Assembly (NCBI RefSeq): GCF_964355755.1
Contig: NC_092672.1
Coordinates: forward strand, 7,440,001 to 7,504,000
Source: Antedon mediterranea
Taxonomy: Eukaryota; Animalia; Echinodermata
Direction: 5' to 3'
Length of the DNA stretch: 64,000 nucleotides
Shown: one piece after another, positions 27,901-56,300 of the stretch
How the letters are laid out: every line of letters begins with the position of its first letter
How positions within the stretch are numbered: the first letter of the stretch is position 1
Notes under the pieces: model-generated
The model's database searches: none
What the model was told of the DNA's origin: nothing
What the model saw: only the letters and a program-made list of their open reading frames with translations
Position numbers and translations under genes: made by a program

Positions 27901-30900
27901 AAACAAAACAAGTGTACTAGGCCTATGTTAATGATTATTTTGATTACTTTATCCTAAATATTTCTTCCTTGATGATACTTTTTTTTTAGTAGAGAAGACT
28001 GTAATAACAGTTAAGTTAAAAACCAAACCTGTGCCAATCCGTCTATAACTCGTAGTACTATTAGTAGATGAGTACTGACTCCTGCAGCAAACGGTACCAG
28101 TGCGGATACAAGACTCACCACGATGACTGCAAGTCCAACTACTAACTTGCCGCCCATAATACCAGCGATGTATCCCCCAGGAATCGGTGTGATGGTGTAC
28201 CCAATATAGAACGCACCCAGAATATATTGCTGAGTTCTTTCATCCCAATTGAATGTTGGAATCTACAGAGTGGAACGTGAAACATTAGTTCATATCTTCC
28301 TTCGTTAATCAACATCATCATCCATCCATCGTCATAATTATTCTTATCTTAAAGGCCAATTTACACAAAATCGAGCGCGGTAACCGTAATATATTTGTTT
28401 TTATATATATCTTTTAGTTTGACGTAGTGATTTCCCAACAGTTGCTCATTCATTATATCATTATACATTATTTTCTAAAACAGTGGAATATTATCTGAAA
28501 TAACATTCATAATACTATAACATGACATATTAAGTAAAACATTAACATCACTTTTTTTTTAAATAACACATTAGAATACTTTTCTATTTAGGACCAGCAA
28601 CATTCATAATTCTTTTTAACCAGCCACACATGAAGAGTAAAATCAGCAGGCATTTTAGTGCCTCCCATCACATCATCACCAAAATAGCGTTTTTCTTTTA
28701 ATCTTTTCCATTTTATTATTCCAGATAAAATTATATATTAGATTTGTAACTTGTGTGTATAGGCCTACATATTTTGGAACATCAGTAATATTTACACCAT
28801 ATGGTAATTTACATAGTGCAAGACTTTTTAGGATTACTATTTACCAAAAATTGAGAGATTTCTAGTATTTCATGATATGATTTTAAAGTCCTTTCTAGCT
28901 CTATTAATTTAACCTCCCAATTTTTTCTGGTGCATTCTTCTTTATTATACCCTACATAACTTTTTATTGGGTGTATTACCTATTTAATTCTAAAGGCCTA
29001 TCTATTCTGTTCTTCCATTTACCAATCCAAAAAGCATTATTTTTTTTTATTTAGTGTCATTCCAGATACTTAAAAAATAGTACAATGACCACTGTCTTAT
29101 CTTGAAAATATTCTTTTTTCCAAACCAATAATTAGTAAAAACTAACCTTGACAGTTTCGCTGTCCTGATCGGACAGCTTCTTCAGAAATAATGTCTTAAT
29201 ACTTTTGTCGTTACCAACGGCTGAATGGTTAATTACCAATGGCTGTTATTGCTGAATGAATTTTATTCTTTTTTATAGATTAGATACAGTAGTTACGATG
29301 TATTGGCTAAATAAGATTTAGTAAAAAAATATTATTATATAACGCTAACGCTAAGTGCTTTTCCCTGATACAAAGGTATTGCGTGATTCAGTTATTATTG
29401 TATACAGTAGGCCCCTATCTATTAAATATATTTATTAAGCCTATTAAATATATTTTTTTAATCAACACACAACCTTTAATCTCATAACCATTGTATTTAG
29501 ACAGACATTTAGCCGACAGACATTTTGGTGACCAGAAAAATCGCGGATATTTCACCGACAGGACAATTGGCCGACAGGACGTTTCGCCTACAGGACATTT
29601 AGCCGACAGATTTATATTCATTTGGTGTAATAATATGGTAACATAATAAATAGATATGAAAAATACAATGTTATCTTAAGAAGTAAGAAAATATGTTTTG
29701 CTTGGTGAATTTTAAAAGTCAATAATTTCTATTAAATAGTAATATTGTGTGGCGAACGTTTATTCGAGGAATAAAATGGACGTCTGGGCGTTTATTGGGA
29801 GTGTTACAGGAGGCAGTGTTTATTTCAATTTTTTTTTTGCGAGGGGGTGTTTATTCAAAGCAGACTGTTTATTCGTATGAATATAGTAATATAAAGCTGA
29901 TTTTAGTAATAATTAGCCAGTTTGTGAGAATACCAACCTTAACCCACAATTTAAACATCCGGACATATTGCATAATTTTTATTATAAAGGTTGATTAGGC
30001 CTACATGTGCCAGAAATTTTTTATATATTTATTCTTGTATTCACTTTTTTACATTGAAAGTAGTAACACGTTTCTCATGTTTTAGTATATGGGAAAATAA
30101 ATCTAAAATTGGAACGAAGTGCATGAAACTAGTTCCTTTTACAGTCATAGCATAGTGTACCATACCGTCTTCAAGAGGATCGGACATTCATCATAACTAC
30201 CCGTAAGAAAAACAAGGCCAACAGCCATTAAGTCGCGTGCTACAATGCATAGTGATACCGGACCGACAGACAGACCGACAGACAGACAGACCGACCGACC
30301 GACATAGTGAACTATACTGACCGAAATTACTGAACATGTTTAAAAATGTTGAAATGTTTAAAAACATTTATATTTTTTTAATTTACACGTGCGTAGCCTG
30401 TCACTTTCGACGTGCTCGTATAACGTAATTTCGAGTTGAAAAGTAAGTCAAGAAAACAGAAATCGGGCAAAAAGAGTGCGCAATAACATTTAACGCGTAG
30501 TGCGCGCGCAAAAATATGCGCACTCATGGCAATTTTGTAAACGCTTAAAATTGCCTGAAATGTACTCTTATTTCATCGAAAATAAATTTTGAAAATTTTA
30601 AGCGTGCGTACACATGCGTTACATGCGCTACGCACGTAATTGTATTGCCATATGATGATTTATGCCCTGAAATTTATGAGTACCAAATTTTATTTAATTG
30701 TGATTCATGGTTGTGAAGATATGATTACAAACGTGATTTCGTTAAATCGTGCGTAGACCACGTAATTTTTTATTGCGCACCGTGAAAACATAACCACATT
30801 GATTCCTGGCCATAAGGAATATACTGTGAAAAATTGACCTAGATAGATTAAACTGATATCAAGATAAGGTCAGAAAGCGATAAAACGCATAGTGATACCG

Positions 30901-39126: not shown

Positions 39127-42100
39127 TTAAATTGGAGTATTTACATCCTTTCTAAAACAAAAAAGATGCAATTAGAAGTCTGACCTGTAGAACCTAGTAA
39201 ACATAATTCTGTATTCTGATTATCTTTGGTCTGTCCAAGATTAGTTATTTAGGCTGGATAAGTTGGTTTCTACATAAAAGTTGGCAATAATTGAGCCCAT
39301 GATACAACTTAACCGGGTAAAAAAAAAGCCCGTTGATTGCTTTCTCTCCGTAACCTCTATAAGATCAGGGAAGAGTGAAATTATCATCTCACTCTTTCAT
39401 GGTAAGACCAACCTGTACATTATTACTTACCCGAGATTTTCACCTTCTACTAATGAATGTGGAAGATTTAAGCCACGTGTTTCCGGAAGAAACCAAGTGA
39501 TTATGCCTGCAACCAGCGTAAGACCACCAAATATTAGATACGGTAACTGCTCAAAGAGAACTCCAGCATAGAGGATCTGAGGTGCGGATATGGCACCAAG
39601 ATTTCCAATCGTTGATGATAATCCTAACGCAGTGTTTCTATAAGAAATCATAAACTTGTATGTATCATATATCATTTACTGAAAGAACACCTTATATAAC
39701 TCTGGAAACCGGCTAAAGTAGGTCCAATAGGCCTATATACAGTTTCTATAACCATAATGAAATCGACCTAAATTCTACGCCCGACGATATCTCAAAAGAC
39801 GACTCGTCTCGTCGGGATTCAACTTCTCAGACAGTCAAGACGAGTCAAGACGTTCCGTCGGGCCTCGTCGCACGATGTTGTCTATGTTGACCTTTCATTG
39901 GTTAACTGTGAGAATGGAGGAAAGTTGCCTCACTCAATTCATCGACAACTTTCTAGGTCCAGAAGACGACCGACGTTTGCACTCCGAAAATGTGTGTCAT
40001 ACCTTATGGGTGTTGGATAAACCTCCGAGGCAACAATGTAGATAATTGTAAATGAGATACTGATGCTGAATTTTCCAACGAGTCCAGAAATCATACCCAA
40101 AATGCTGTTAGCTGTTGGAGAAATAGTTTTCTTTATATCAGTTTCTATCCTTATAATTAATTATAGACATACGGGTGATATTATTGTACACAATTTATTT
40201 CTTAAGTGGTATTTTAAAATTGAATATACAGTAGTACTTTGGCGGGTCATTCATCCATGTATTCAATAGTATAAAAGCCACTGTACAATAATAGAATATA
40301 ATACATATTATAAAATGTAAGTAGTAGTAACAGCAAAATAATTTGTTATGCGAAAAAGGCAAATCTTACCAGGTTATTGATTACTTTTTCTTTTTGTTTT
40401 TCATTACTAAAATACACTTATTTGTTGGTTTATTAAAATAATAAAAGGAGTGTAAGTTTTGCATCATCTCGATCTCTCTTTAATGAATGCGCTGACTAAT
40501 GATCGTATTTAGTCCATTTATTGGTTGTACGTATGATAAGCTTTATTATTTATCATTAAATGTTTTGATAGTGGCAGAATCCAGAGACAATTGTACTGAC
40601 ATTCATGACTATATACTCACACAAAAACGGAGAAGATGCGCAGGCTATACCAGCTAGTACCATCGCTGCACTTAAAATTGGCCGGCGTCCCATACGTTCC
40701 ATGGCGATCCATCCAAGAAAAGCAGCGGGAATTTCTACGAGACCAGCCAGTACGTTGGCAACATAATCATTGGATCCAAGAGTTACAGCACTTAATGATA
40801 ATCCGTAATAAACCAAGGAGTTTACAAACCTGGAAATTAGGAACAAAGTTAGGCATCAACTTGGATCTGAGTGGAAACTTGTTAGAAAGCGATTGAGAAA
40901 TGTTAAGATAGTTGGTATACGCTACATTCGATGTTCTGTTATTATATATAGTATATTTCTAATCTTAAAAATTCCACCTAAACTGATAATAGCATTCGTA
41001 GTGCCTTTTACATACAACTCCCACCATCACACACCCAACAATCCAGTGTAAATAGGTGTATGGCACGTTTATGACGACAACGAACAACGATAAATAGATA
41101 AATATACAATGTTCCTCCAAAATCATTCAGGCCTAATCAGAAACAAATCTGAGCTTTTCAGAAAACTGAAAATGATGGTCAATAACTGTTTAGTTTTCGG
41201 AGAGTTTGCTGTGTTGGAGAGTAGAACTAGAAGCCTAGTTTGAACCGTAGACCATACCAACAATCACTTACCATATAAAATTAATAAGAAAAAACCTCAA
41301 CCAAAGATTTTTCATGCGCAATAGATTTCGTGGTTTAAAATCGGATGATGATTTCTGGTGATTTAAAAAAATACAAGTAATAGATCAATTATATTTTAAG
41401 TCGTCGTTCGCATTGTCTGTTGTAAGCGCTGTCTACACTTTATGTGACAAAACAATGTGAATAGTTTGATTGTGTAGACAGAGCTCTACACAAGGCATGT
41501 ACCTCAATTACTGCGGGTGTTGCACATATCATTTGGGACACTCTAATGCTTTCTTGGGGTTCTTTGCTGGACCGACATGCCCGTTTCAAAATCACTTCTG
41601 TTTCTCCCATTCTGTTTCTTGCATGGAGCCATCGAGGAGATTCGGTAACAACCCTAAAAAACAATATTTACATTATTGTAACGTGAAATAACTACTGCGG
41701 TTTTCTTCATACCACGTTTTTGGGTCATCGCAAGGACGTCGTAAACGCAACAATTGCCGACGGTGATAGATCATATAGGCAAAATAATGTCCATCATATA
41801 CCTATATGATATTTGATTATGGGAGAACTTTTAGAAAACATCGGGTATGAATTATGCCACGAACCAAACTTGCCTTGTCTTAATTCACGTTGTTCCCACT
41901 AGCGACGCAACGCAGCGACGTATCGACGCAAAGTGCTGTATTGCGTAATCACAAGTGGGAACCGACGACGAAACAGTGCTGCAAACATTGCATGTTTGAT
42001 TTCACGCAGGCGGGGGCAAACACAATTATTGGAAGGGCATTTTCTTACGTTGTGTAGGTTGCGTTACGTTGCGTATCTAGTGGGAACCAAGCTTTACATT

Positions 42101-45100: not shown

Positions 45101-48100
45101 GAAAACCTGAAAATGTTGTTTGGGTAAAAATGTAGTGAAGTAGAAAATCAAATTCTGAATCGCAATCACTATGAAGTGTACATTTTCAACAACATAATTT
45201 GTAATTTTCTCATTTGGAGGTTGTGGTGCAATGGGATATCAAAATGACTAGAATTAATTGTATTTGGAAGGTATTAAACTATTTAAACCGCCTTGATTGT
45301 GTAATGGTTGTGGGGTGTATTGGGATATCATAATTACTAGAATTCGTCGTTATTGGGGAGGTTTTAAAATACATTTGAAATCTACCGTACCTGTCACTGA
45401 CGTTTCCAAATATCAATGCGCCTAATAGTACACCGAAGTAAGTTAATGAGAGCATCAAAGGTATTAAATAAGCATCTTCACACACCAAATTAAACTGTAT
45501 AGAATATATAAATATTAAAATTTATTGTTTCGGTTGTAGGCCCTAGTCCAAATGGATCGTAGGTCTTGGAAAGGAAAGGTTTATTTACGGGTCATAGTTT
45601 GAATATAAGGGTTGTCTGGGCTTGTTATGCGCTGACCTATCTAATTCGTATACTATATTGTTACTTGGTATCATTTGATCGTCCTCAGAGTGAGAATGCA
45701 CTAAGTCTAGGAAAAAGAACTTAAGTGAAATTGGCTAAAAGCTAAAACAATGAGCAAGGTTCACAGTGAGAGGAGGGAGGAAGTTTTTAAAATATTTATT
45801 ATTGTTTTTATATTATTTAGTCGCAGCCAATCATAGGTTGTTCAATCTATCTTGGCAAGGCGAGCTAGAATCATGTTGTTAGATTACCTTGGTCTATTAT
45901 TAGTTCCATGTTTTATTCCAAAGCAATGTTTGTCGAGTATTTTGGCTATTTGACCCTTTTTATCGACTGTCTGTCTGTGGGCCTATATTTAACACAGGCA
46001 ATTTGATTTATTACCACATCATACTTAATTTTACCTAAAAAGAAGTTACTTATTTTGTCATCTGTATAATAGAAAATGGAAATTAAAACGGCAATATAGG
46101 ATAATATAGCATAATAATTATAAACTCAATTTGAATAACAGAGTTGATTTATAGTGACATTTCTAGATTGTGCTTGTATGTGCGGTGTAAATTCGTTGCC
46201 ACTTCTGCTCATTAGATTTAAAATAGAAAGCAATGCTAAGACGTTTTGAGAAACCATCATTGTTTTGTTTTTGTCAGCATTTACCGGTAGGTAAAAACCT
46301 CACTACACGAGGTCAATCCATACTTCCGTCTCACGAAATGCATTTTGGGTAATGAAAGCCAACTTTTTTACAACCCACCCACGAAGTATGTGCAGCGGAA
46401 ACGGTGCACGAATTTCATATACGGTATATATACGGTATATTTATACGGTATATTTTGGGTTGGCAGCAGAAATAGTAAGTACTACTATAACGTTGTCCAC
46501 TATTTCCAAGTACCATATCATATATCATATACATTATCTATATATAAATTTACGTAAGGGCAAAATTCGGTAAATCGCGCCTTACTTTTAGAATTTTTAC
46601 TCGATGGTATGTAAAGTTGGTTCGTACTTTCGGTACTGATTTTAACCACCTGATGTAACCCTGTTTACTAATTAAATTAAGTTAGATAATTAGTTATTGA
46701 CGATTAAAACGAATTTAGGTTCAACGATTTGCCCCAGATAGGGGTGTTTTCCGATCGTGGTATACACTGTCTAATGGATGTCCATCTTGAAAAATACCCG
46801 CCACAAAAATGCGAGGAGGCTTCGCATTTTCCTATCTCCTCCTACGATAATTGTTTTTAATAGCTGAAAACCGGTTGAGCTCGAGTACAGTATCATAATG
46901 TTGAAGACAGGCCGATTTTCTTAAAAAAATACTATTTTGATAGATTTAATATACGTTTATACAAATGTATTGATTTGCGATGAATGGAACATTCCAATCT
47001 CTGTGTCGTTCCACAAGTGTCTATTCCCTCAGGCGTCGTAAAGGAAAGTACTGTATACTCATAACAGAAATTTGATCCATTTTTTTTTCAATCTGTGCTG
47101 CAGAGGTTGGATATAATTTTTTTTAAACGGATAATGAGCTAGCGTTTTCAGTCGCCGTAATTTAATATTTATTACCGATTAAATCGAATTTATGATTTGC
47201 CCCGAATAGAGGTGGTTTTCACAAATTGTTTAACATTATATATAAACATACGTCGTAGTGTATCGTAACATGTACTGTACTATTTCAATCGACTACGACG
47301 GTGATAGTTTCAACAAAGTATTACATCGCAATGTTTTACTGTGTTTAGTGGTATATTATTTGTAAAACATGTTAATTAATATTTCGTTACAAAATAAAGA
47401 ATATATTTAAAAATTGTTCCTCTTTGCACCCATCCTCTTCCCCATCTCTCAACCATATTGTTACATATATAATACAAAACACAGATTAAGTTTGTTTAAA
47501 TTTGACTTAAACAATTGGTCTCATTTTGTGACAACTTTCTCTTTCGGAAGTAATTCCCAGTGTGCTAATTTTAGTTGAGTACATAAATCACAGTTCCTGT
47601 AAACGACATATATTATTGCCCTGCATTATTGTACATTTGAAATCGCCAGTTTTTTAACGCTGAAATTACTGTGTATTCGAGAACCGTGGGCACGACCTAG
47701 ATGGTACGCGAGTTTGAAATTTAACTAAACCGGTACTTCATAATTTTCCCGAGTGTGGTTGTCAAAATAAGATTTAAGTATCAAACAATTTCCTTTTTTT
47801 TAGTTTGATTATTTTCTCTGTTACTAAATGAAGAAGTTGCATTTCTAGTTTACTATGAGAAAACTATAATAATTACTAATAAAAATCAAAGTAGTTAGGT
47901 CCTTTCTGAATGTACACTTTTAGCCAAAAGTGCGAGCGAGTGAGAATTAGATCTAAGGCCTAAATCAGTAATCATATTAGGCATATATTTTTATTGAGAC
48001 GGTTTCAGGAAAATAATAATCGTTTTTAAATATATGGAAAATAAAAACTTTTAAACTATAATTGCTAAACCAACCTCTTGTGTTACGGATGATAGATACT

Positions 48101-48497
48101 TAGTTGTATCAAACTCGTACCCATTGCCACAACGATGAATTGAAGAATTTCTCGATGTGCTCAGATTGGTAAAATTATACTTGCTACATTGATTTTCTTT
48201 TAACGGCGTGTTTTCATTGTCAACTGGTCGGTTCTCAAGTTTTAAAGTCCGACATTCAACGTCAGTAAAATTTCTTTCCGTACACAAATCGTTTAATTCT
48301 TCAACGTTGCACCAGAAATCTATCTCGGGAAACAGAAATACAACGGCGAGTGAATTCCATCCTATAGATGTAATACATAAGCTGGCTGTTACAAATGAAA
48401 CAAACAAATACTTATTACAGGAACCGATATATTTAAAAATATCGTCAAAATGAAATTTCTCCGCGTGAAGTTTGTTTGATTGGTTTTCGAGTTCCAT
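39127..48497 (-). CDS. SLC22-family organic cation transporter-like protein (paralog B), about 545 aa, 10 exons
   Basis: Exons 48497-48075, 45494-45391, 44970-44816, 42545-42374, 41653-41503, 41354-41272, 40829-40621, 40111-40003, 39637-39431 and 39151-39127 (last exon less certain) give a 1638-nt open frame. Intron phases are the same as paralog A. Motifs: FDDIFKYIG, DRLGRK, ESPRWL, ERMGRR, EVYPTPIR, LPETRG. Confidence 0.92.
42781..44520 (-). mobile_element. 5'-truncated L1/Tx1-clade LINE with poly(A) tail and about 17-bp TSD
   Basis: An uninterrupted frame runs from the truncation point to the stop at 43095 (W..RNISFFGKITVIKTL..., YNFLW, ENGG, WVKRLL, zinc knuckle CEYC...ENEKHMLFTC). Poly(T) at 42778-42789. 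TCCCTGAATAAATATTT occurs at 42764-42780 and 44521-44537. Confidence 0.92.
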
Positions 48498-49682
48498 TCT
48501 GATCAAGTCTATTGCTACAGTGTAGTAGTATAGGCTACGACGTGCAGTGCAGATTAATTTTTCCAGAATAATCACGTCACACGACGAAAAATGAATTGAT
48601 TATATTTAGGTAGGCATATGCACCGTGAGAAGAAATGCTGGTGGGTTTGTGAACTCAATGCAAACTTCCTAATTGTATAGTAATCTATGACACATGTTTT
48701 CCTTATTATTTATATTTTATTTATACAGTAGGGGGCCTAGTGTAGGTGTATCTTATCAAGGCTATATCACTGAGCATTGGTCTTACTGGACACAGGTTCC
48801 GAAGGAAACCACTACTTAATCCTTGTCCGAGGGTGTTTTATATTGAAATTGTATTTCTGATATTGAAATCATCCCAAATGTATGTTTTAATTGAACGAAA
48901 ACCCGGCCAACTTAAAAATGTGCATGTATGGCTATCATCAACAACTTTCAACTGCTTTATTGATACTGCCAATTCGTAAAATTAAAGTTGGTGTTGCGTC
49001 AATAATCGTCTGGTTTTTACATTAAATTATATAGCCAAGATTTTTTTAGGAGTACACAAGTATTCCCAGAACAGTAAACCCATGCGGAGAGTATTAGGGA
49101 GCTTATTAAAAGTGCGTTTTTTCGATCCAATATAATTTACCGTCAAGCTACATTACATATAATGTAAAAATATACTACTGTACTGTATTATGATCCATCA
49201 CTTAAGTTTGTTCGTCTTTAAACGGTTAAAAATAAGTTGATTCAAATGATTTAAGCATCCCAACATGCATTGAACGCGTATTGATATTTTTTTTTTCTAT
49301 GATTTTCACCCACCTTCGCTCGATCGTGAAAGGCCAAAACAAATGGAAAAATTCTAACTTTTCAGCAAAAATAGATTTAAATGTCTTTAAAGTAATACAC
49401 CTATATATAAATTATTTTTACAAAACGTCAACATTGTAGGGAATGGGTCTTTATATGCATTACATATCACTTGGTGCATCCACTAAATGCACACGTTTGT
49501 TGCCAAACTAAACGCACCTCCAAAATAAGTAATTAAAAACTACAGTTGTCGAAAAGCACAAAAGACAAAACACATATATTCCTATTATACTTTTTCAGCT
49601 TTATTTCATATCAGAAATGCGGTCTTATTTGACTGATCTAATTCTAGTCACCGATTTAACATTTTATTAAAGCTTTTTGTAT

Positions 49683-51133
49683 TTATTCATCATCATCATC
49701 TTCATCATCATCTTGATTGATCTGGAAGTATCTCAGTTCGTACGTTTCCTTGTTAGCTGCAACAACTCTCAACCAATCACGAAGGTTGTTCTTCTTCAAG
49801 TATTTCTTTGTCAAATACTTTAAGTACCTACAAAATATAAAACAAATTTATTTTATTTAATTTACAGGGAAAACTGTTTTTCGATTTCTGCCAAACCTTT
49901 TTCACATGAAAACTTCAAAGTTTACAGCATAACTTCAAACCTTTTAGACAATTTTGAGAATTTCGATAAAACTTTTTCGCATTAATATATCAAAGTGCAC
50001 AGAGTATGGCATATTAATGAATGCAATTAAATATCCTGAAAGTGATACCAAACGTTATGAAGTGTGATAGGCATTCTATATATAATAACAAATATGTAAC
50101 ATTGTCAAATGGCCTTCATACCTTTTAGAGAACTGGATGTCACTGGCAACCGTGAGCTTACTCTTGCTACGCTCAATCACAACATTCGTTCCAAGGTTCT
50201 TCATCTTACCGTTGACCTTGATTTTATCTTGGAGAAATTTCTCCTGATGTGGAAATTAAACAGAAACATGTTGGAATTAGGGAAGGTTGCCCTAATTCAA
50301 CTAGGGAAGGGTACCCTAGTGATTGTGGTGGCCAGCCAGCAGAAGGAGTTACAAGGGGCAGGGGTGGTAGTGGTCCTCAGCTGCTGGTATCTATCCTTAG
50401 TTAGGGAAAGTTTCCCTAATTCATTGGACAATATCATTCACTTATTTGTTGATGTACACTTGTCAACATGTAAATTCCTGTCCAGATAAAATTAAAGAAA
50501 ATGCCTTGGTAAAACATTTCAATCTATTTAGTGCATTACATTAGTTGAGAGGAAATAATGTAATAAAGATTATTCGAGTAAATCAAGATTTAGCATCGTC
50601 TTACAAAGTCAGAGGCATCCATGATTCCATCTTCCACAGGATGTGCACAATCAATGATAAACTTCAGTTGAGTCTTCTTTTTCTTGCCTTTGCCGGAACT
50701 GGCTTTGCCAACCTTTTTCTGAACTTTGACCTATTTATTAATTAGTAAATAAAGTGCACTGAAGTATAGGCTAGCAGACTAAAACTAAATTTGCTTTGTA
50801 AACAAATAACTTATGTGGTCTAAATGCGCCCTTTACTATATATCGTCAGAAACAAGAAATGGACTAGCGCCACCACCACCAGAGTGTTACCACCTGGTCA
50901 CCACCGCGCCGCCCTCACCCCCAATCAGCTGAACTGAATAGAATTTAGAAAGAAGCTTCCCTACAGAAATACGGCAAACAGGCTTTTATAATTGTATATT
51001 TTTATGAAAGTGTTTGTCATAAGATGCTAATTATATTAAAAATCAGTTGCCGATACTTTATAATAATCATATTAGTGCAAAATAGGTATTTTTAATGTAT
51101 TTTCGGCACCAATTATTCACTTACTGCAGGCAT
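49683..51133 (-). CDS. RPL22: 60S ribosomal protein L22 (eL22), 133 aa, 4 coding exons
   Basis: Exons 51133-51125, 50730-50605, 50243-50122 and 49827-49683 give [58 protein letters not shown]...[51 protein letters not shown]. Confidence 0.97.
50274..50479 (-). promoter_or_regulatory. Structured RNA element in RPL22 intron 2: three G-C-closed 7-nt-loop hairpins plus an alternative 3' splice site
   Basis: Sense-strand hairpins UUAGGG-AAACUUU-CCCUAA (50419-50401), ACUAGGG-UACCCUU-CCCUAGU (50320-50300) and GAAUUAGGG-CAACCUU-CCCUAAUUC (50298-50274). The upstream acceptor TTTTCTTTAATTTTATCTGGACAG ends at 50478. The function is inferred. Confidence 0.7.
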
Positions 51134-51149
51134 GATGGAAGTCGGAACG

Positions 51150-51167
51150 TAAAAGAAAGATGAAAGG
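51150..51167 (-). promoter_or_regulatory. TCT initiator / 5'TOP pyrimidine tract of RPL22
   Basis: The - strand reads CCTTTCATCTTTCTTTT about 25 nt upstream of the ATG, as expected for a ribosomal-protein gene. The TSS is probably near 51159. Confidence 0.75.
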
Positions 51168-52619
51168 ATTTATGGGAAAAATGATACCGCCCTCTATACC
51201 AACCCCCTCTACCGGCGACAGAACTATGTTTGTGTGTTTTCACTGGGTGGAGTTCAATTTTCGCATTTGCTTCTTTTTAATGTTCCCAAATTTGTTATTT
51301 TGTCAGGTAAATGATCAAGAAATTGGAATTTTCACTATCTAGGCCTAGTATATACCTGTAAACTTCATTCTTTATAATGATAATATTAGATGATGAAATA
51401 TATAATCGAACAGGTATAAAATAGTGTTAATAATGATGGAGTGTGAGTGTGCCCAGCCTGGCCCCACAGCTAGTCTTAAGTTTTAGTACTAACTAGGCCT
51501 AGCCTCTAGGTAGGCCTATGATGCCTGGTAGTAGGCCTAGGCTATAGGCTAAAGCCTAGTAGTAGGCCAACCAACCAGACAGGGCCTATAGGGGTAGGCC
51601 TAGCGGATTTCCGGCCTAGCTAGGCCTACTACAGTAGGCCTAGGCGGCTAGTGTATAACTAGCTAAGTAGAGAGAGGGCCTAGAGTGGTAGTAGTAGTAG
51701 TAGGCCTATTATGCTCATGCTAAAACTAGGTTATATAGCTTATGATGAAGCTAAGCCTTACACTTATTTACAGTCAGTAGTATTACTAAACTTAAAAGTG
51801 CTAGCCTAGGACCTAATAAACTTAAAAATTAAACTAGATTTAATTCGTCACTATGACGAATTATAGGTTATATGCATTGATTTAAATAAAGATAATTGAT
51901 TTTTAAAAGATATTTTGATTGATTGATTTTCTCAGATTCTTTAATTATTTATAATATATGATAGGACCTTGCTAACGCGAATACAATAGCCGGTATCACA
52001 ATCCGATCAAAGATCCCTCTGCGTATAATGTCATAAACCACATTTGTTGTTACATAATAATAAAGACATAAGTTACTTTTTATCTAGATTTCATTATAAA
52101 TCATGTGTATAATATATACACTAAGAAATAAATTTGAACAAACAATACGGATAATAAAAAAAAAATCTTATTTCGTTTCCCAAGGTGAGACTCGATCTCG
52201 GTACCTTGAGTGCCATAGACACGAGCACAGAACACTGAGCCATACACAACTGACTAAAAGTTGTAGAAAAATTCCTCCGTGTATTTACTATGCAGTAACC
52301 ACTTTGGTGCAGACAGATTATTACATACCGCAATGAATTATAATTTTTTACTATGATGACATCTCTAAAAATGTACAATAATGATGCACTGTCAAACTAT
52401 ACACTTTTAACTTTAATATATGAACTTTTGAAGGAAGAAAGTTAATGTTAAGTTTGTTATTTTGGCCTAAGAAAATGTCATAATTTGTTTGATTGTCGAA
52501 ATGATTTTTTTAAAATTTAATATGCAATTAATTATGGCTTAATCAACTTTTGTTCCCTTAGTTTAATAATAAATCATACATAAGATACATACACTTCAAG
52601 AAAATGAAATAAAAAATAT

Positions 52620-53300
52620 GTGTTCCCGAGCATTCTGACGATCTATATTAATTTTAAAATTTAGCATATTTTCACCATTTTGTTAACTTACACGTGTGTA
52701 GCCTGTCACTTTTGACGTGCTCGTATAAGGCAATTTCGCGTTGAAAAGTGAATAAAATATGATGATATTATTAAAGAAAGGTTTTACAACCGAAATCGGA
52801 CAAAAAGAGTGTGCATTAACGTATAACGCGCAGTGCGCGTGCAAAAATCTGCCCACTCATGGCAATTTTTTTAAACGCCTAAAATTGCCTGAAACCTACT
52901 CTAATTTCATCGAAAATTAATTTTGAAAATTTTAAGCGCGCGTACGCATGCGTTATATGCGCTACGCACGTAATTATATTGCCATATGATGAAATATGAC
53001 CTGAAATTTATGGGTACCAAATTTTGTTTAAAAGTGATTCATGATTGTGAAGATATGATTACAAACGTGATTTTGTTAAATCGCATAATTTTTGATTGCG
53101 CACCATGAAAACATAACCACATCGATTCCTGGCCATAAGGAATAAACTCTGAAAAATTGACCTAGGTAGATGAAACTGATATCAAGATAATTGACAGACA
53201 AAATAGTGCTAAGGAAAGAATAAATAAAGGAATAAATAATAAAGATTCTGACAGAATCAAGAGGTTATAATAATATGCATGATAATGCATATAACCTAAT
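52620..53300. mobile_element. HINE-like element sharing about 480 bp of internal sequence with 30386-30867
   Basis: ACACGTG.GTAGCCTGTCACTTT...GATATCAAGATAA is collinear with the earlier copy. It has a different terminal hairpin (GGTTATA..TGCAT..ATGCATATAACC) and (AATA)n instead of (GACA)n. Confidence 0.6.
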
Positions 53301-53380
53301 AATATTAAAAGCACTGTTTTGCAATTATTTTTTGTTTGTATTCATAAACAGAGACCATAACTTATAACAATAAAACAACG

Positions 53381-56300
53381 ATGCCAGCTCTTTTAAGACC
53401 TAAACTGAGTAAGGCGATGTCAGATGCCCTACGACACCATATACTTAAAGAGAGAGAAAGAAAAAGACAAGGTTAGTCTACAGTATTAAGCCAAGGAAGC
53501 TATTTTCGAAATATAATAGTAATCAGTAAAACCATACCAAAAAGACAATTTCAGAACCAAATAAAGTGTCCCTTTAATGGAGATATAAATGATGGAAAAT
53601 TATCCTCTAGCCTTCTAAATCTATATTAATTAATTAAAGAGTCATTCTTTGTCAAAATAGTAGTAGCAACTACTAGATTATACAAATATATTACAGCCTA
53701 TACATTATGTGTAGCATCATGTATAGGTACAGTTTTTTAAATATTATTTTTTGTTAATAATAATTTTGTTTAGTCACATATTAATTATATATGTGTTTGT
53801 ATTCTTTGTAGAAGAAGAAGAAGCTGACAAAGCAATTGAAAGAAAAAAGGAAGAAAAAGAGAGGTTACGCAAGAAAGCTGAGGATGAAACCCTATCACTT
53901 GAACAAACCAAAGTCCAGGTGTGGAAAGTGGCATATTGTTTTATTTCTTTAGACAAAAATATTCACACAGGAATACAATCTTTAAAGAGGGTAACCCTTC
54001 CATCCAGTTTAGCCCAGCAGTGGGTATCTTTCTAAATACACTAGTGTTTTGCATTGATACAAAACTTTTATTTGTTCAGATTTATAAACAATCAACTTTA
54101 CTTTTTAATTCCCTGTAATTGAACTATATGTTAGAAAAGCAAAAACAAGTTTTAAACTTTTTTTTTCAGCCACGATTATGCGTCACACATTTAGGTCACA
54201 TTCAGGTCATACATGTTCATAAGATGGGTATTTGGCAATTATAATAATTTTTTTTTTCTTGATTTTGTCTATTTAAAAGGTGAAACATTTAGAAGATAAA
54301 TTGCAGACTTTACAACGAGAAAAGCATGAACTATTTTTACAATTAAAGAAAGTTATCAATGAAGATGACAACAGGAGAAAGCAAAGAGAAAAGGAGAAAA
54401 GGTAATTAATTAGGATTTTAGTTAACTTTGTGCTCCAACTTAATATGTATTGTAATTTATTATGATGTTTTTTATTAATTGTGATATGGATGAATTGTTT
54501 CATATAAAATTGTTGTGAGATGTGATGTGAGATTTCACTTCAAATGTTTTGCACGTATACATGTCATGGTTTAGGTACGTTGAATGTACCTCAGCTTCTA
54601 ACTCATAAAGAAAACTAAATTGTTGTGATGTGAGATGTGATGTGAGATTTCACTTCAAATGTTTTGCACGTATACATGTCATGGTTTAGGTACGTTGAAT
54701 GTACCTCAGCTTCTAACTCATAAAGAAAACTAAATTGTTGTGATGTGAGATGTGATGTGAGATTTCACTTCAAATGTTTTGCACGTATACATGTCATGGT
54801 TTAGGTATGTTGAATGTACCTCAGCTTCTAACTCATAAAGAAAACTAAATTGTTGTGATGTGAGATTTCACTTCAAATGTTTTGAACGTATACATGTCAT
54901 GGTTTAGGTACCTTGAATGTACCTCAGCTTCTATAACTAATAAAGAAAACTAAATTGATTGTACACACATTTTGGTGGAGTTATGAAATAAAGATGGGAT
55001 AATGTTGTTTGTATGCATTCTATTGGTATATAGAAAAATATGTAAACATATAAAGGTAGATTTATTGAAGAAAATGGGTTTGACAAATTAATATAAAAAA
55101 TGATATTTACTATCTGTATTCTATATTATATCCATAGCAATATTTTACATGCAATGAACCACCATCAATATCTGCCTGCTATGCGTATAGGAGGAGGACC
55201 ACATCTTATTGTGCAAGGTAAAGTTCAAATTAACTATAAACTTGTATATTATTCATTCTGTACCTCATATTTTTGGATCAGTATATATCATCACTACCAT
55301 GTTTAAACAGTAATGAACTATAGTTATTTTCAGACAGCCTTACATCTGAGGTAAAGTTACATCAAACATCAATTATACATGCATGTTACTTTGGATGGGC
55401 GTCCACACAATGCTTAATACTGGCGGAGTAAATTGTCTTTAGTAAATTTAAATTAACTTAATACAAAGAGTGTCTTCACAGGCACTACCAGAGGGCTAAA
55501 TCTCAGCCTAAGAGTGTCTTCACAGGCACTACCAGAGGACTAAATCTCAGCCTAAGAGTGTCTTCACAGGCACTACCAGAGGGCTAAATCTCAGCCTAAG
55601 AGTGTCTTCATAGGCACTACCAGAGGGCTAAATCTCAGCCTAAGAGTGTCTTCACAGGCACTACCAGAGGGCTAAATCTCAGCCTACACTTTCAAAGTTT
55701 ATGTGACAAAAATATATATGGACACGATGATGTCATATGACTACCACGTTGAGCATACCTGTATGACTACCATATTTGGGCACATCACCCTTTTTTATCA
55801 AATTAGGTCAAATTGATAGTGTAGACAGAGCTTTACAACAAACAAACTGCTTTCTTCTGACTGATATCTGTCACCTTTTCATCACTATTGCATTGTCAAA
55901 ACCAATTTTGCACTTTTGTAAAATGCTGAAAATTGTATTTTGTTGTTATGATAGGTATCAACCGTCCTGCACTGTTGGGTGATTCACCAAAGTTTAGACA
56001 ACAACAGACTTCACCATCTCATGTAAGTTTACTTTACAATGTCACTTTTTGTTAAAATTTAAGACTTATTTAATGTGTTACTATGTACACGGCAAAAGCC
56101 TTGTAAATCAATCATGAGGTAGCTCTTCTACTATTGGTTGGATCCTTTAGATGATGACAAACTTTTGGAATTATAACTGATGGGCAAACTAAGGGCTAAT
56201 TACAATTATTCAGGGCTGCAAATTAAGGGGTATTTGGTCGCATTTGCGACCTAATTTTTCTGTTTGCGACTAAAGAAACAGAATAGGATCAGATCGTCTG

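Follow-up and report, generated by a model that had tools for sequence, protein, structure and literature searches.

A candidate eL22 feedback element in intron 2 of the RPL22 gene of the crinoid Antedon mediterranea

The second intron of the Antedon mediterranea RPL22 gene carries three hairpins that fit the binding consensus of the gene's own product, the ribosomal protein eL22. It also carries an upstream 3′ splice site (hereafter the poison acceptor) that leads into an early stop codon and was seen in use in one RNA-like sequencing run. We think it likely that the hairpins and this upstream acceptor form a feedback loop through which eL22 acts on its own gene. Most likely, the element is an invertebrate's version of the exon-3A switch known from RPL22L1, here lying in RPL22 itself. 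All positions given below are those of the window, the 64 kb stretch of genomic DNA that was analysed, and the gene is read from its minus strand.

The RPL22 gene and the hairpins of its second intron

The sequence and open reading frames of the window outline a four-exon RPL22 (eL22) gene on the minus strand (Table 1), with a pyrimidine-rich, TOP-like leader, recognised from the sequence alone, preceding its ATG. The best-scoring protein among seven candidates was eL22 of another crinoid, Anneissia japonica, at 88% identity, and the gene therefore fits the original prediction, made from the bare letters, of an RPL22 from an invertebrate deuterostome. For this lineage, protein searches showed one eL22 entry per species, which is a statement about entries seen and not a count of gene copies. 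As exon 1 lies outside the RNA-like contigs, the numbering of intron 2 follows from the genomic sequence together with the human gene.

Table 1. Features of the RPL22 gene and of its second intron, in window coordinates
Feature	Positions	Strand	Basis and remarks
Exon 1, coding part (ATG CCT GCA)	51125..51133	-	Predicted from sequence only; outside the RNA-like contigs
Exon 2	50605..50730	-	3′ end set by both junctions in RNA-like run X1
Intron 2, normal form, 361 nt	50244..50604	-	GT..AG, phase 0 between Phe and Glu codons; X1 joint
Intron 2, short form, 127 nt, ending at the poison acceptor	50478..50604	-	X1 joint
Poison acceptor, pyrimidine tract and CAG	50478..50501	-	Use seen in X1
Poison extension of exon 3, 234 nt, containing all three hairpins	50244..50477	-	X1 contig
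Premature stop TGA	50463..50465	-	341 nt before the exon 3/4 junction, which is the last junction; 49-aa product; predicted NMD trigger
Hairpin 1, loop AAACUUU	50401..50419	-	Sequence and fold prediction
Middle stem-loop (GC-rich, polymorphic), between hairpins 1 and 2	50332..50387	-	Fold prediction
Hairpin 2, 7 bp, loop UACCCUU	50300..50320	-	Pair P about 1.0
Hairpin 3, 9 bp, loop CAACCUU	50274..50298	-	Pair P about 0.84; a branch-point candidate lies in its 3′ strand
Candidate branch point CCCUAAU, A at 50277 (-34 from exon 3)	50276..50282	-	Motif
Normal pyrimidine tract and CAG	50244..50273	-	By prediction, 50273-50258 pairs with 50483-50464, around the poison acceptor
Exon 3	50122..50243	-	Pfam Ribosomal_L22e, E 5.3e-12; joints in X1
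Exon 4, coding part	49683..49827	-	KKYLKK basic cluster and acidic tail; 294-nt-skipping joint in X1

The surroundings of the gene show some further features. On the minus strand, two in-frame acceptors 12 nt apart are candidates for the end of intron 1, 50731 (TAG) and 50719 (CAG); both have poor pyrimidine tracts, and the choice between them would add or omit Val-Lys-Val-Gln. The 5′ end of exon 2 may alternatively lie at 50718, after the in-frame CAG; the RNA-like contig begins at 50700 and leaves both possible. Upstream of the RPL22 start, a region at about 51480-51820 is dense in the palindrome TAGGCCTA and in CTA/TAG repeats. Short pieces of high-copy repeats lie at about 49940-50000, within intron 3, and at 49400-49455; hundreds of other contigs match there in DNA-like runs, and the summed depth in intron 3 is thousands-fold over that of its flanks. 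Downstream of RPL22, exon-sized frames at 28014-28262, 39430-39675 and 40559-40855 (minus strand) match Pfam MFS_1 or Sugar_tr and represent one or more major-facilitator transporter genes. The Pfam scan took 122 of the 234 stop-to-stop frames of the window and returned five matches.

The motif UAGGG-N7-CCCUA occurs at 50418-50402, 50318-50302 and 50294-50278, and at no other site in the whole 64 kb. When the stem was counted on both strands there were four matches (hairpin 1 being counted on both strands) against 0.03 expected, and none of 100 shuffles reached four. We also scanned for the eL22 consensus, taken as a G-C closing pair, a loop of 5–7 nt, a 3′ U and at least five Watson-Crick pairs, and found three such hairpins in intron 2; among 5000 dinucleotide shuffles the mean was 0.05, with seven reaching two and none reaching three. 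Over both strands of the window, eight consensus hairpins have at least six pairs, and three of these eight are the minus-strand trio of intron 2. The predicted fold of the intron (-85.3 kcal/mol, z = -3.06) was equalled by none of 100 shuffles. The original prediction had placed three hairpins in a GC-richer block of this intron, and a check of the sequence agreed with it at every coordinate, the block having a GC content of 0.50 against 0.28 in the 5′ part of the intron.

As set out in the portions available to us of three papers, eL22 recognises a stem-loop with a G-C top pair, a loop of 5–9 nt and a 3′ U (PMC2668802, PMC3750023, PMC4838235), and the hairpins agree with this published consensus, as had been claimed for their G-C closing pair and 3′ loop U. 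The consensus is loose, and the available text of one study reports no RPL22 CLIP peak on the SELEX sites of 28S rRNA (bioRxiv 10.1101/2024.08.15.608201). Hairpins 2 and 3 are adjacent and both are predicted to have open 7-nt loops. For the naked RNA, folding predicts that hairpin 1 zips its loop down to 3 nt, giving an 8-bp helix (mean P 0.77); this hairpin matches the consensus only with its loop open, and opening it to 7 nt would cost about 1.9 kcal/mol. The stems had been described as kept while the loops vary; the stems are indeed identical and the loops do differ, but four of the seven loop positions do not differ among the three. Given this sharing, and an identity of 91% over 23 nt between the units of hairpins 1 and 3, the three hairpins look like copies of one module and not like independent solutions.

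The 5′ part of intron 2 also holds a 10-bp AU-rich hairpin at 50565-50534 (minus strand; mean P 0.95), which pairs a second CUAAU (50544-50540) lying 63 nt upstream of the poison acceptor. By prediction, this hairpin could shorten the short intron or hide a branch candidate.

Splicing at the upstream acceptor

Five runs contain this stretch, each as contigs and not as raw reads; none is recorded as RNA and none as perturbed. One of them, X1, was treated as RNA on the strength of three GT-AG joints, which the DNA-like runs lack. X1 covers the exons, has no cover in intron 1, and its joints skip 294, 361 and 127 nt; all three joints were absent from each of the three DNA-like runs compared (X2, X3 and X5). 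The 127-nt joint is the predicted junction, from donor 50604 to acceptor 50478. It is found on one 277-nt X1 contig, which runs from 50476 to 50214, through all three hairpins and into exon 3. This joint has 20 nt on its exon-2 side, below the 31-nt bridging threshold, and comes from one contig in one run of one study; an exact 20-nt match that ends at the true donor and resumes after the CAG is unlikely to be a chance event. Contig depth was 238 for the 127-nt joint and 9500 for the normal 361-nt joint, figures that do not measure isoform share.

In frame, the poison extension reads GAA TTT ACA TGT TGA and stops after four codons. As a rule, NMD acts on a stop more than 50–55 nt before the last junction, and the TGA, at 341 nt, is well beyond this distance. 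Both the acceptor and the stop had been predicted before any junction was at hand, and both were borne out by the junction present in X1. Judged by motif, the branch A serving the poison acceptor may be 50510 (-33) or 50492 (-15).

X1 differs from the window by three substitutions and a 6-nt deletion, all of which fall at 50343-50369, within the middle stem-loop and outside the hairpins; with four events, and with the hairpins making up about 28% of the segment, this sparing of the hairpins is a weak sign. No X1 contig showed full retention of intron 2, of which 50492-50587 is uncovered, and contigs drop rare forms, so that absence is not implied. A depth of 17.8 at 50472-50538 was considered as retained intron and rejected as a bin-edge effect. 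A protein search for short poison-isoform proteins (30–69 aa) found no candidate, a blank that carries no weight.

Relation to the human RPL22L1 switch and to other known systems

An alternative 3′ splice site lying within intron 2 of human RPL22L1, known as exon 3A, variant 3, RPL22L1b or L22L1 ncRNA, is controlled by RPL22. Use of this upstream acceptor is raised by RPL22 and goes down on its depletion, its product is stabilised by anisomycin, and the intron contains two juxtaposed eL22-consensus stem-loops (10.1101/2024.08.15.608201; 10.1101/2023.12.29.573614; PMC12035866; all available in part). One study has an RPL22 CLIP peak on this intron, and the accessible portion of PMC12035866 has none. 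In human RPL22L1, 67 nt separate a strong upstream acceptor from the weak normal one (PMC10325915, seen as an excerpt). The original prediction had taken eL22 feedback on the yeast RPL22B and vertebrate RPL22L1 introns as established, and the literature, in the parts available, agrees.

Our comparison with human RPL22L1 was made from oligonucleotides printed in methods sections and not from the whole intron sequence. Of the first 18 nt of a human intron-2 primer, 16 agree with hairpin 2 (50316-50299), and its last 4 nt mismatch; this is its only match in the window at up to three mismatches, with 0.02 expected. The human bases of this primer are also covered by one that is specific to the poison isoform (PMC11057873, in the part available), so the human hairpin sits inside the poison segment, as it does in Antedon. 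The human genomic guide starts G-GAGCAA and the spliced-form primer has T in place of the first base (oligonucleotide sources including the available part of PMC11057873); this difference falls at the base preceding the Glu codon and places the human intron at the same Phe/Glu codons. Human guides also match crinoid exon 3, with 1 mismatch in 12 at its start and 3 in 20 at its end; the guide for the start has a second match, which is this palindromic site read on the opposite strand.

The likenesses to the human switch are thus an intron at the same Phe/Glu position (the human side being deduced from oligonucleotides), an upstream acceptor with low constitutive use that gives an early stop, and eL22-consensus stem-loops lying side by side at or after the acceptor, one of near-identical sequence. 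The differences are that Antedon has three hairpins where human has two, and a 234-nt in-frame extension that stops after four codons in place of a 67-nt frameshift; moreover, the Antedon element lies in RPL22 itself, so that the predicted regulation would be self-feedback and not control of a paralog. The shared intron position and the hairpin match support common descent with the vertebrate element but do not prove it, as a short motif selected by eL22 could converge.

Other known systems share parts of this arrangement. In Saccharomyces cerevisiae, eL22 represses splicing of its own gene family, RPL22A and RPL22B, through intronic structure, with the products going to NMD (PMC4838235; PMC13630204; both available in part). 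According to the same excerpts, the yeast element is unlike the SELEX hairpin: its loop sequence is irrelevant and it acts through retention or alternative 5′ splicing. The Antedon intron does not conform to the long-stem RPL22B type, having short consensus hairpins and an alternative 3′ site, and the two elements are probably analogous and not homologous. Human MDM4 intron 6 and the viral RNA EBER1 resemble the Antedon element in having a cluster of three consensus stem-loops with a G-C top pair and a 3′ loop U (for MDM4, the accessible text of 10.1101/2023.12.29.573614), and a cluster of three eL22 sites is therefore not special in itself. Both differ from it in kind, MDM4 being a trans target with exon skipping and EBER1 a viral decoy RNA, and as described in the parts available neither is feedback on RPL22. 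L10a and RPS9 are likewise ribosomal proteins that control their own unproductive splicing (AS-NMD) through a conserved element, although the proteins and the elements are different (PMC4937301, PMC3315480, in part). The claim that a triple-hairpin architecture is undescribed in an invertebrate deuterostome holds in so far as our literature search, which is thin on subscription papers, found no description of the element in an invertebrate RPL22 gene; the device itself is known from RPL22L1, and triples from MDM4 and EBER1.

A metagenome scan for orthologous introns, in which one search peptide spans the intron-3 junction and so biases the scan against intron-bearing genes, gave 454 confirmed stretches. 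The best 80 of the 454 all matched as unspliced reading frames, two of them with internal gaps of 32 and 37 residues. A loose AGGG-N5-8-CCCT occurred in eight of these 80, in no case inside an intron of the gene. Viral contigs gave no eL22 match, and a search of prokaryote genomes gave four loci with single matches. These four contigs from bacterial genome bins (L081-L084) encode eL22-like proteins of 41–60% identity and are probably eukaryotic contamination of the bins.

Mechanism, alternatives and meaning

Intron 2 has a single yUnAy in the range -15 to -45, the CUAAU at -34, which is predicted to be paired, with an unpaired probability of 0.00–0.01 globally and 0.02–0.07 locally. The original prediction held that the last hairpin hides the branch point; the predicted pairing agrees with this, but weakly, as the opening cost of 5.8 kcal/mol was reached by 11 of 150 control motifs and intron 3 of RPL22 has no yUnAy in the same range. 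In single-sequence prediction, two 8-bp helices (mean P 0.94 and 0.88) couple the region of the poison acceptor to the normal pyrimidine tract. The poison CAG is itself predicted to be paired (unpaired P 0.02–0.03), with 50265-50258 as its partner in the full fold, and it is predicted to be paired also locally, before the normal tract has been made. In the wide fold, opening would cost 9.6 kcal/mol at the poison acceptor and 4.5 kcal/mol at the normal one, so a simple clamp model leaves the pairing of the poison acceptor unexplained. Of the proposal that eL22 clamps the hairpins and diverts splicing to the poison acceptor, the use of that acceptor is seen in X1, and its CAG is not predicted to be free.

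Reasoning from the human system, we propose that eL22 not taken up by 28S rRNA would bind the hairpins on nascent RNA. Surplus eL22 would then shift splicing to the 50478 acceptor, the shift following the eL22 level, and NMD would remove the stop-containing product, whereby eL22 would limit its own supply. From the folding, hairpins 2 and 3, when bound, may keep the branch A at 50277 paired, block U2 loading and so handicap the normal acceptor. Provided that the loop operates, we lean slightly towards branch-point occlusion of this kind, by handicapping the normal acceptor, as its main step.

The same loop could turn on another step, in which hairpin-bound eL22 would release or activate the poison acceptor, for example by breaking the long helix, or by recruiting an SR protein, and burial of the branch point would be incidental. 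This reading overlaps with the main one, and we regard it as possible but on balance doubtful. It would account for the predicted pairing of the poison CAG, which is flanked by the second 8-bp helix. It would also fit three reports, each available in part: SRSF4 knockdown lowers the human RPL22L1 poison variant (bioRxiv 10.1101/2024.08.15.608201), the eL22 motifs of MDM4 act from downstream of the skipped exon, so that branch-point burial is not needed there (10.1101/2023.12.29.573614), and the inhibitory fold of yeast RPL22B leaves the branch point recognised (PMC13630204). The long helix is, however, a single-sequence prediction over 200 nt, and as the poison CAG is paired locally even before the tract is made, its pairing may be uninformative; the only good branch candidate, moreover, does sit in hairpin 3. 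Where a gene is very highly expressed, use of a minor acceptor can also be noise, and the upstream acceptor might be a splicing error or a constitutive leak, with the hairpins a vestige or a local duplicate lacking a present regulatory role. The low depth ratio in one run and the close likeness of hairpins 1 and 3, as expected of recent copies, would suit this reading, which we nevertheless judge unlikely: intron 2 holds 13 internal AGs, and the single one seen in use in X1 is the one that had been predicted; exact stems in an AT-rich intron and a 16/18-nt match to human RPL22L1 in the corresponding intron would be hard to keep without selection; and a target of NMD is expected at a low steady-state level.

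Introns of ribosomal protein genes commonly encode small RNAs, and the structured block could in principle be one of these (an H/ACA or C/D snoRNA, or a K-loop RNA). It is GC-rich and well folded, with an ANANNA at 50390 after an extended hairpin 1, an ACA at 50326, one CUGA at 50380 and a C-box-like AUGUUGA at 50469. In an H/ACA RNA the pocket usually lies 14–16 nt from the H box, whereas by inspection that of hairpin 1 lies about 10 nt away, and the ACA does not come after a closed second hairpin. The C-like box is without the first GA of RUGAUGA, and no exact RUGAUGA is present (consensus as in the available part of 10.64898/2026.08.03.742641). Hairpins 2 and 3 fall outside either layout, and in the X1 contig the block is seen within a spliced exon. 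An intronic snoRNA had been named beforehand as the alternative to check in Rfam, and no match was returned at E up to 1 in positions 47000-54000. With no Rfam match and no canonical boxes in a canonical layout, we reject a snoRNA or K-loop RNA as highly improbable.

Self-feedback by eL22 through the hairpins and the poison acceptor is thus the reading that we prefer. The mechanism belongs to a class already known, and the gain is evolutionary and practical, not a new kind of system. On the practical side, the hairpins, the branch candidate and both acceptors stand further apart in the Antedon layout than in the human segment of 67 nt, and this makes it a convenient minigene for finding out at which step eL22 acts. 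On the evolutionary side, whether repression of eL22 paralogs was inherited or arose repeatedly was left open in the available text of PMC4838235. We find it somewhat the better bet that the eL22 switch is older than the vertebrates: it would have arisen as self-feedback in intron 2 of a single ancestral RPL22, would live on in crinoids as a sensor with three sites, enclosed by a long acceptor-coupling helix, and would have been inherited by RPL22L1 after the vertebrate duplication, autoregulation thereby becoming the cross-regulation of paralogs now studied in cancer. If the Antedon element is a working copy, the control of the vertebrate paralog would be ancestral self-feedback left in one duplicate, and the part that eL22 plays in sensing spare ribosomal protein through splicing, later put to use on MDM4, would be at least as old as the deuterostomes.
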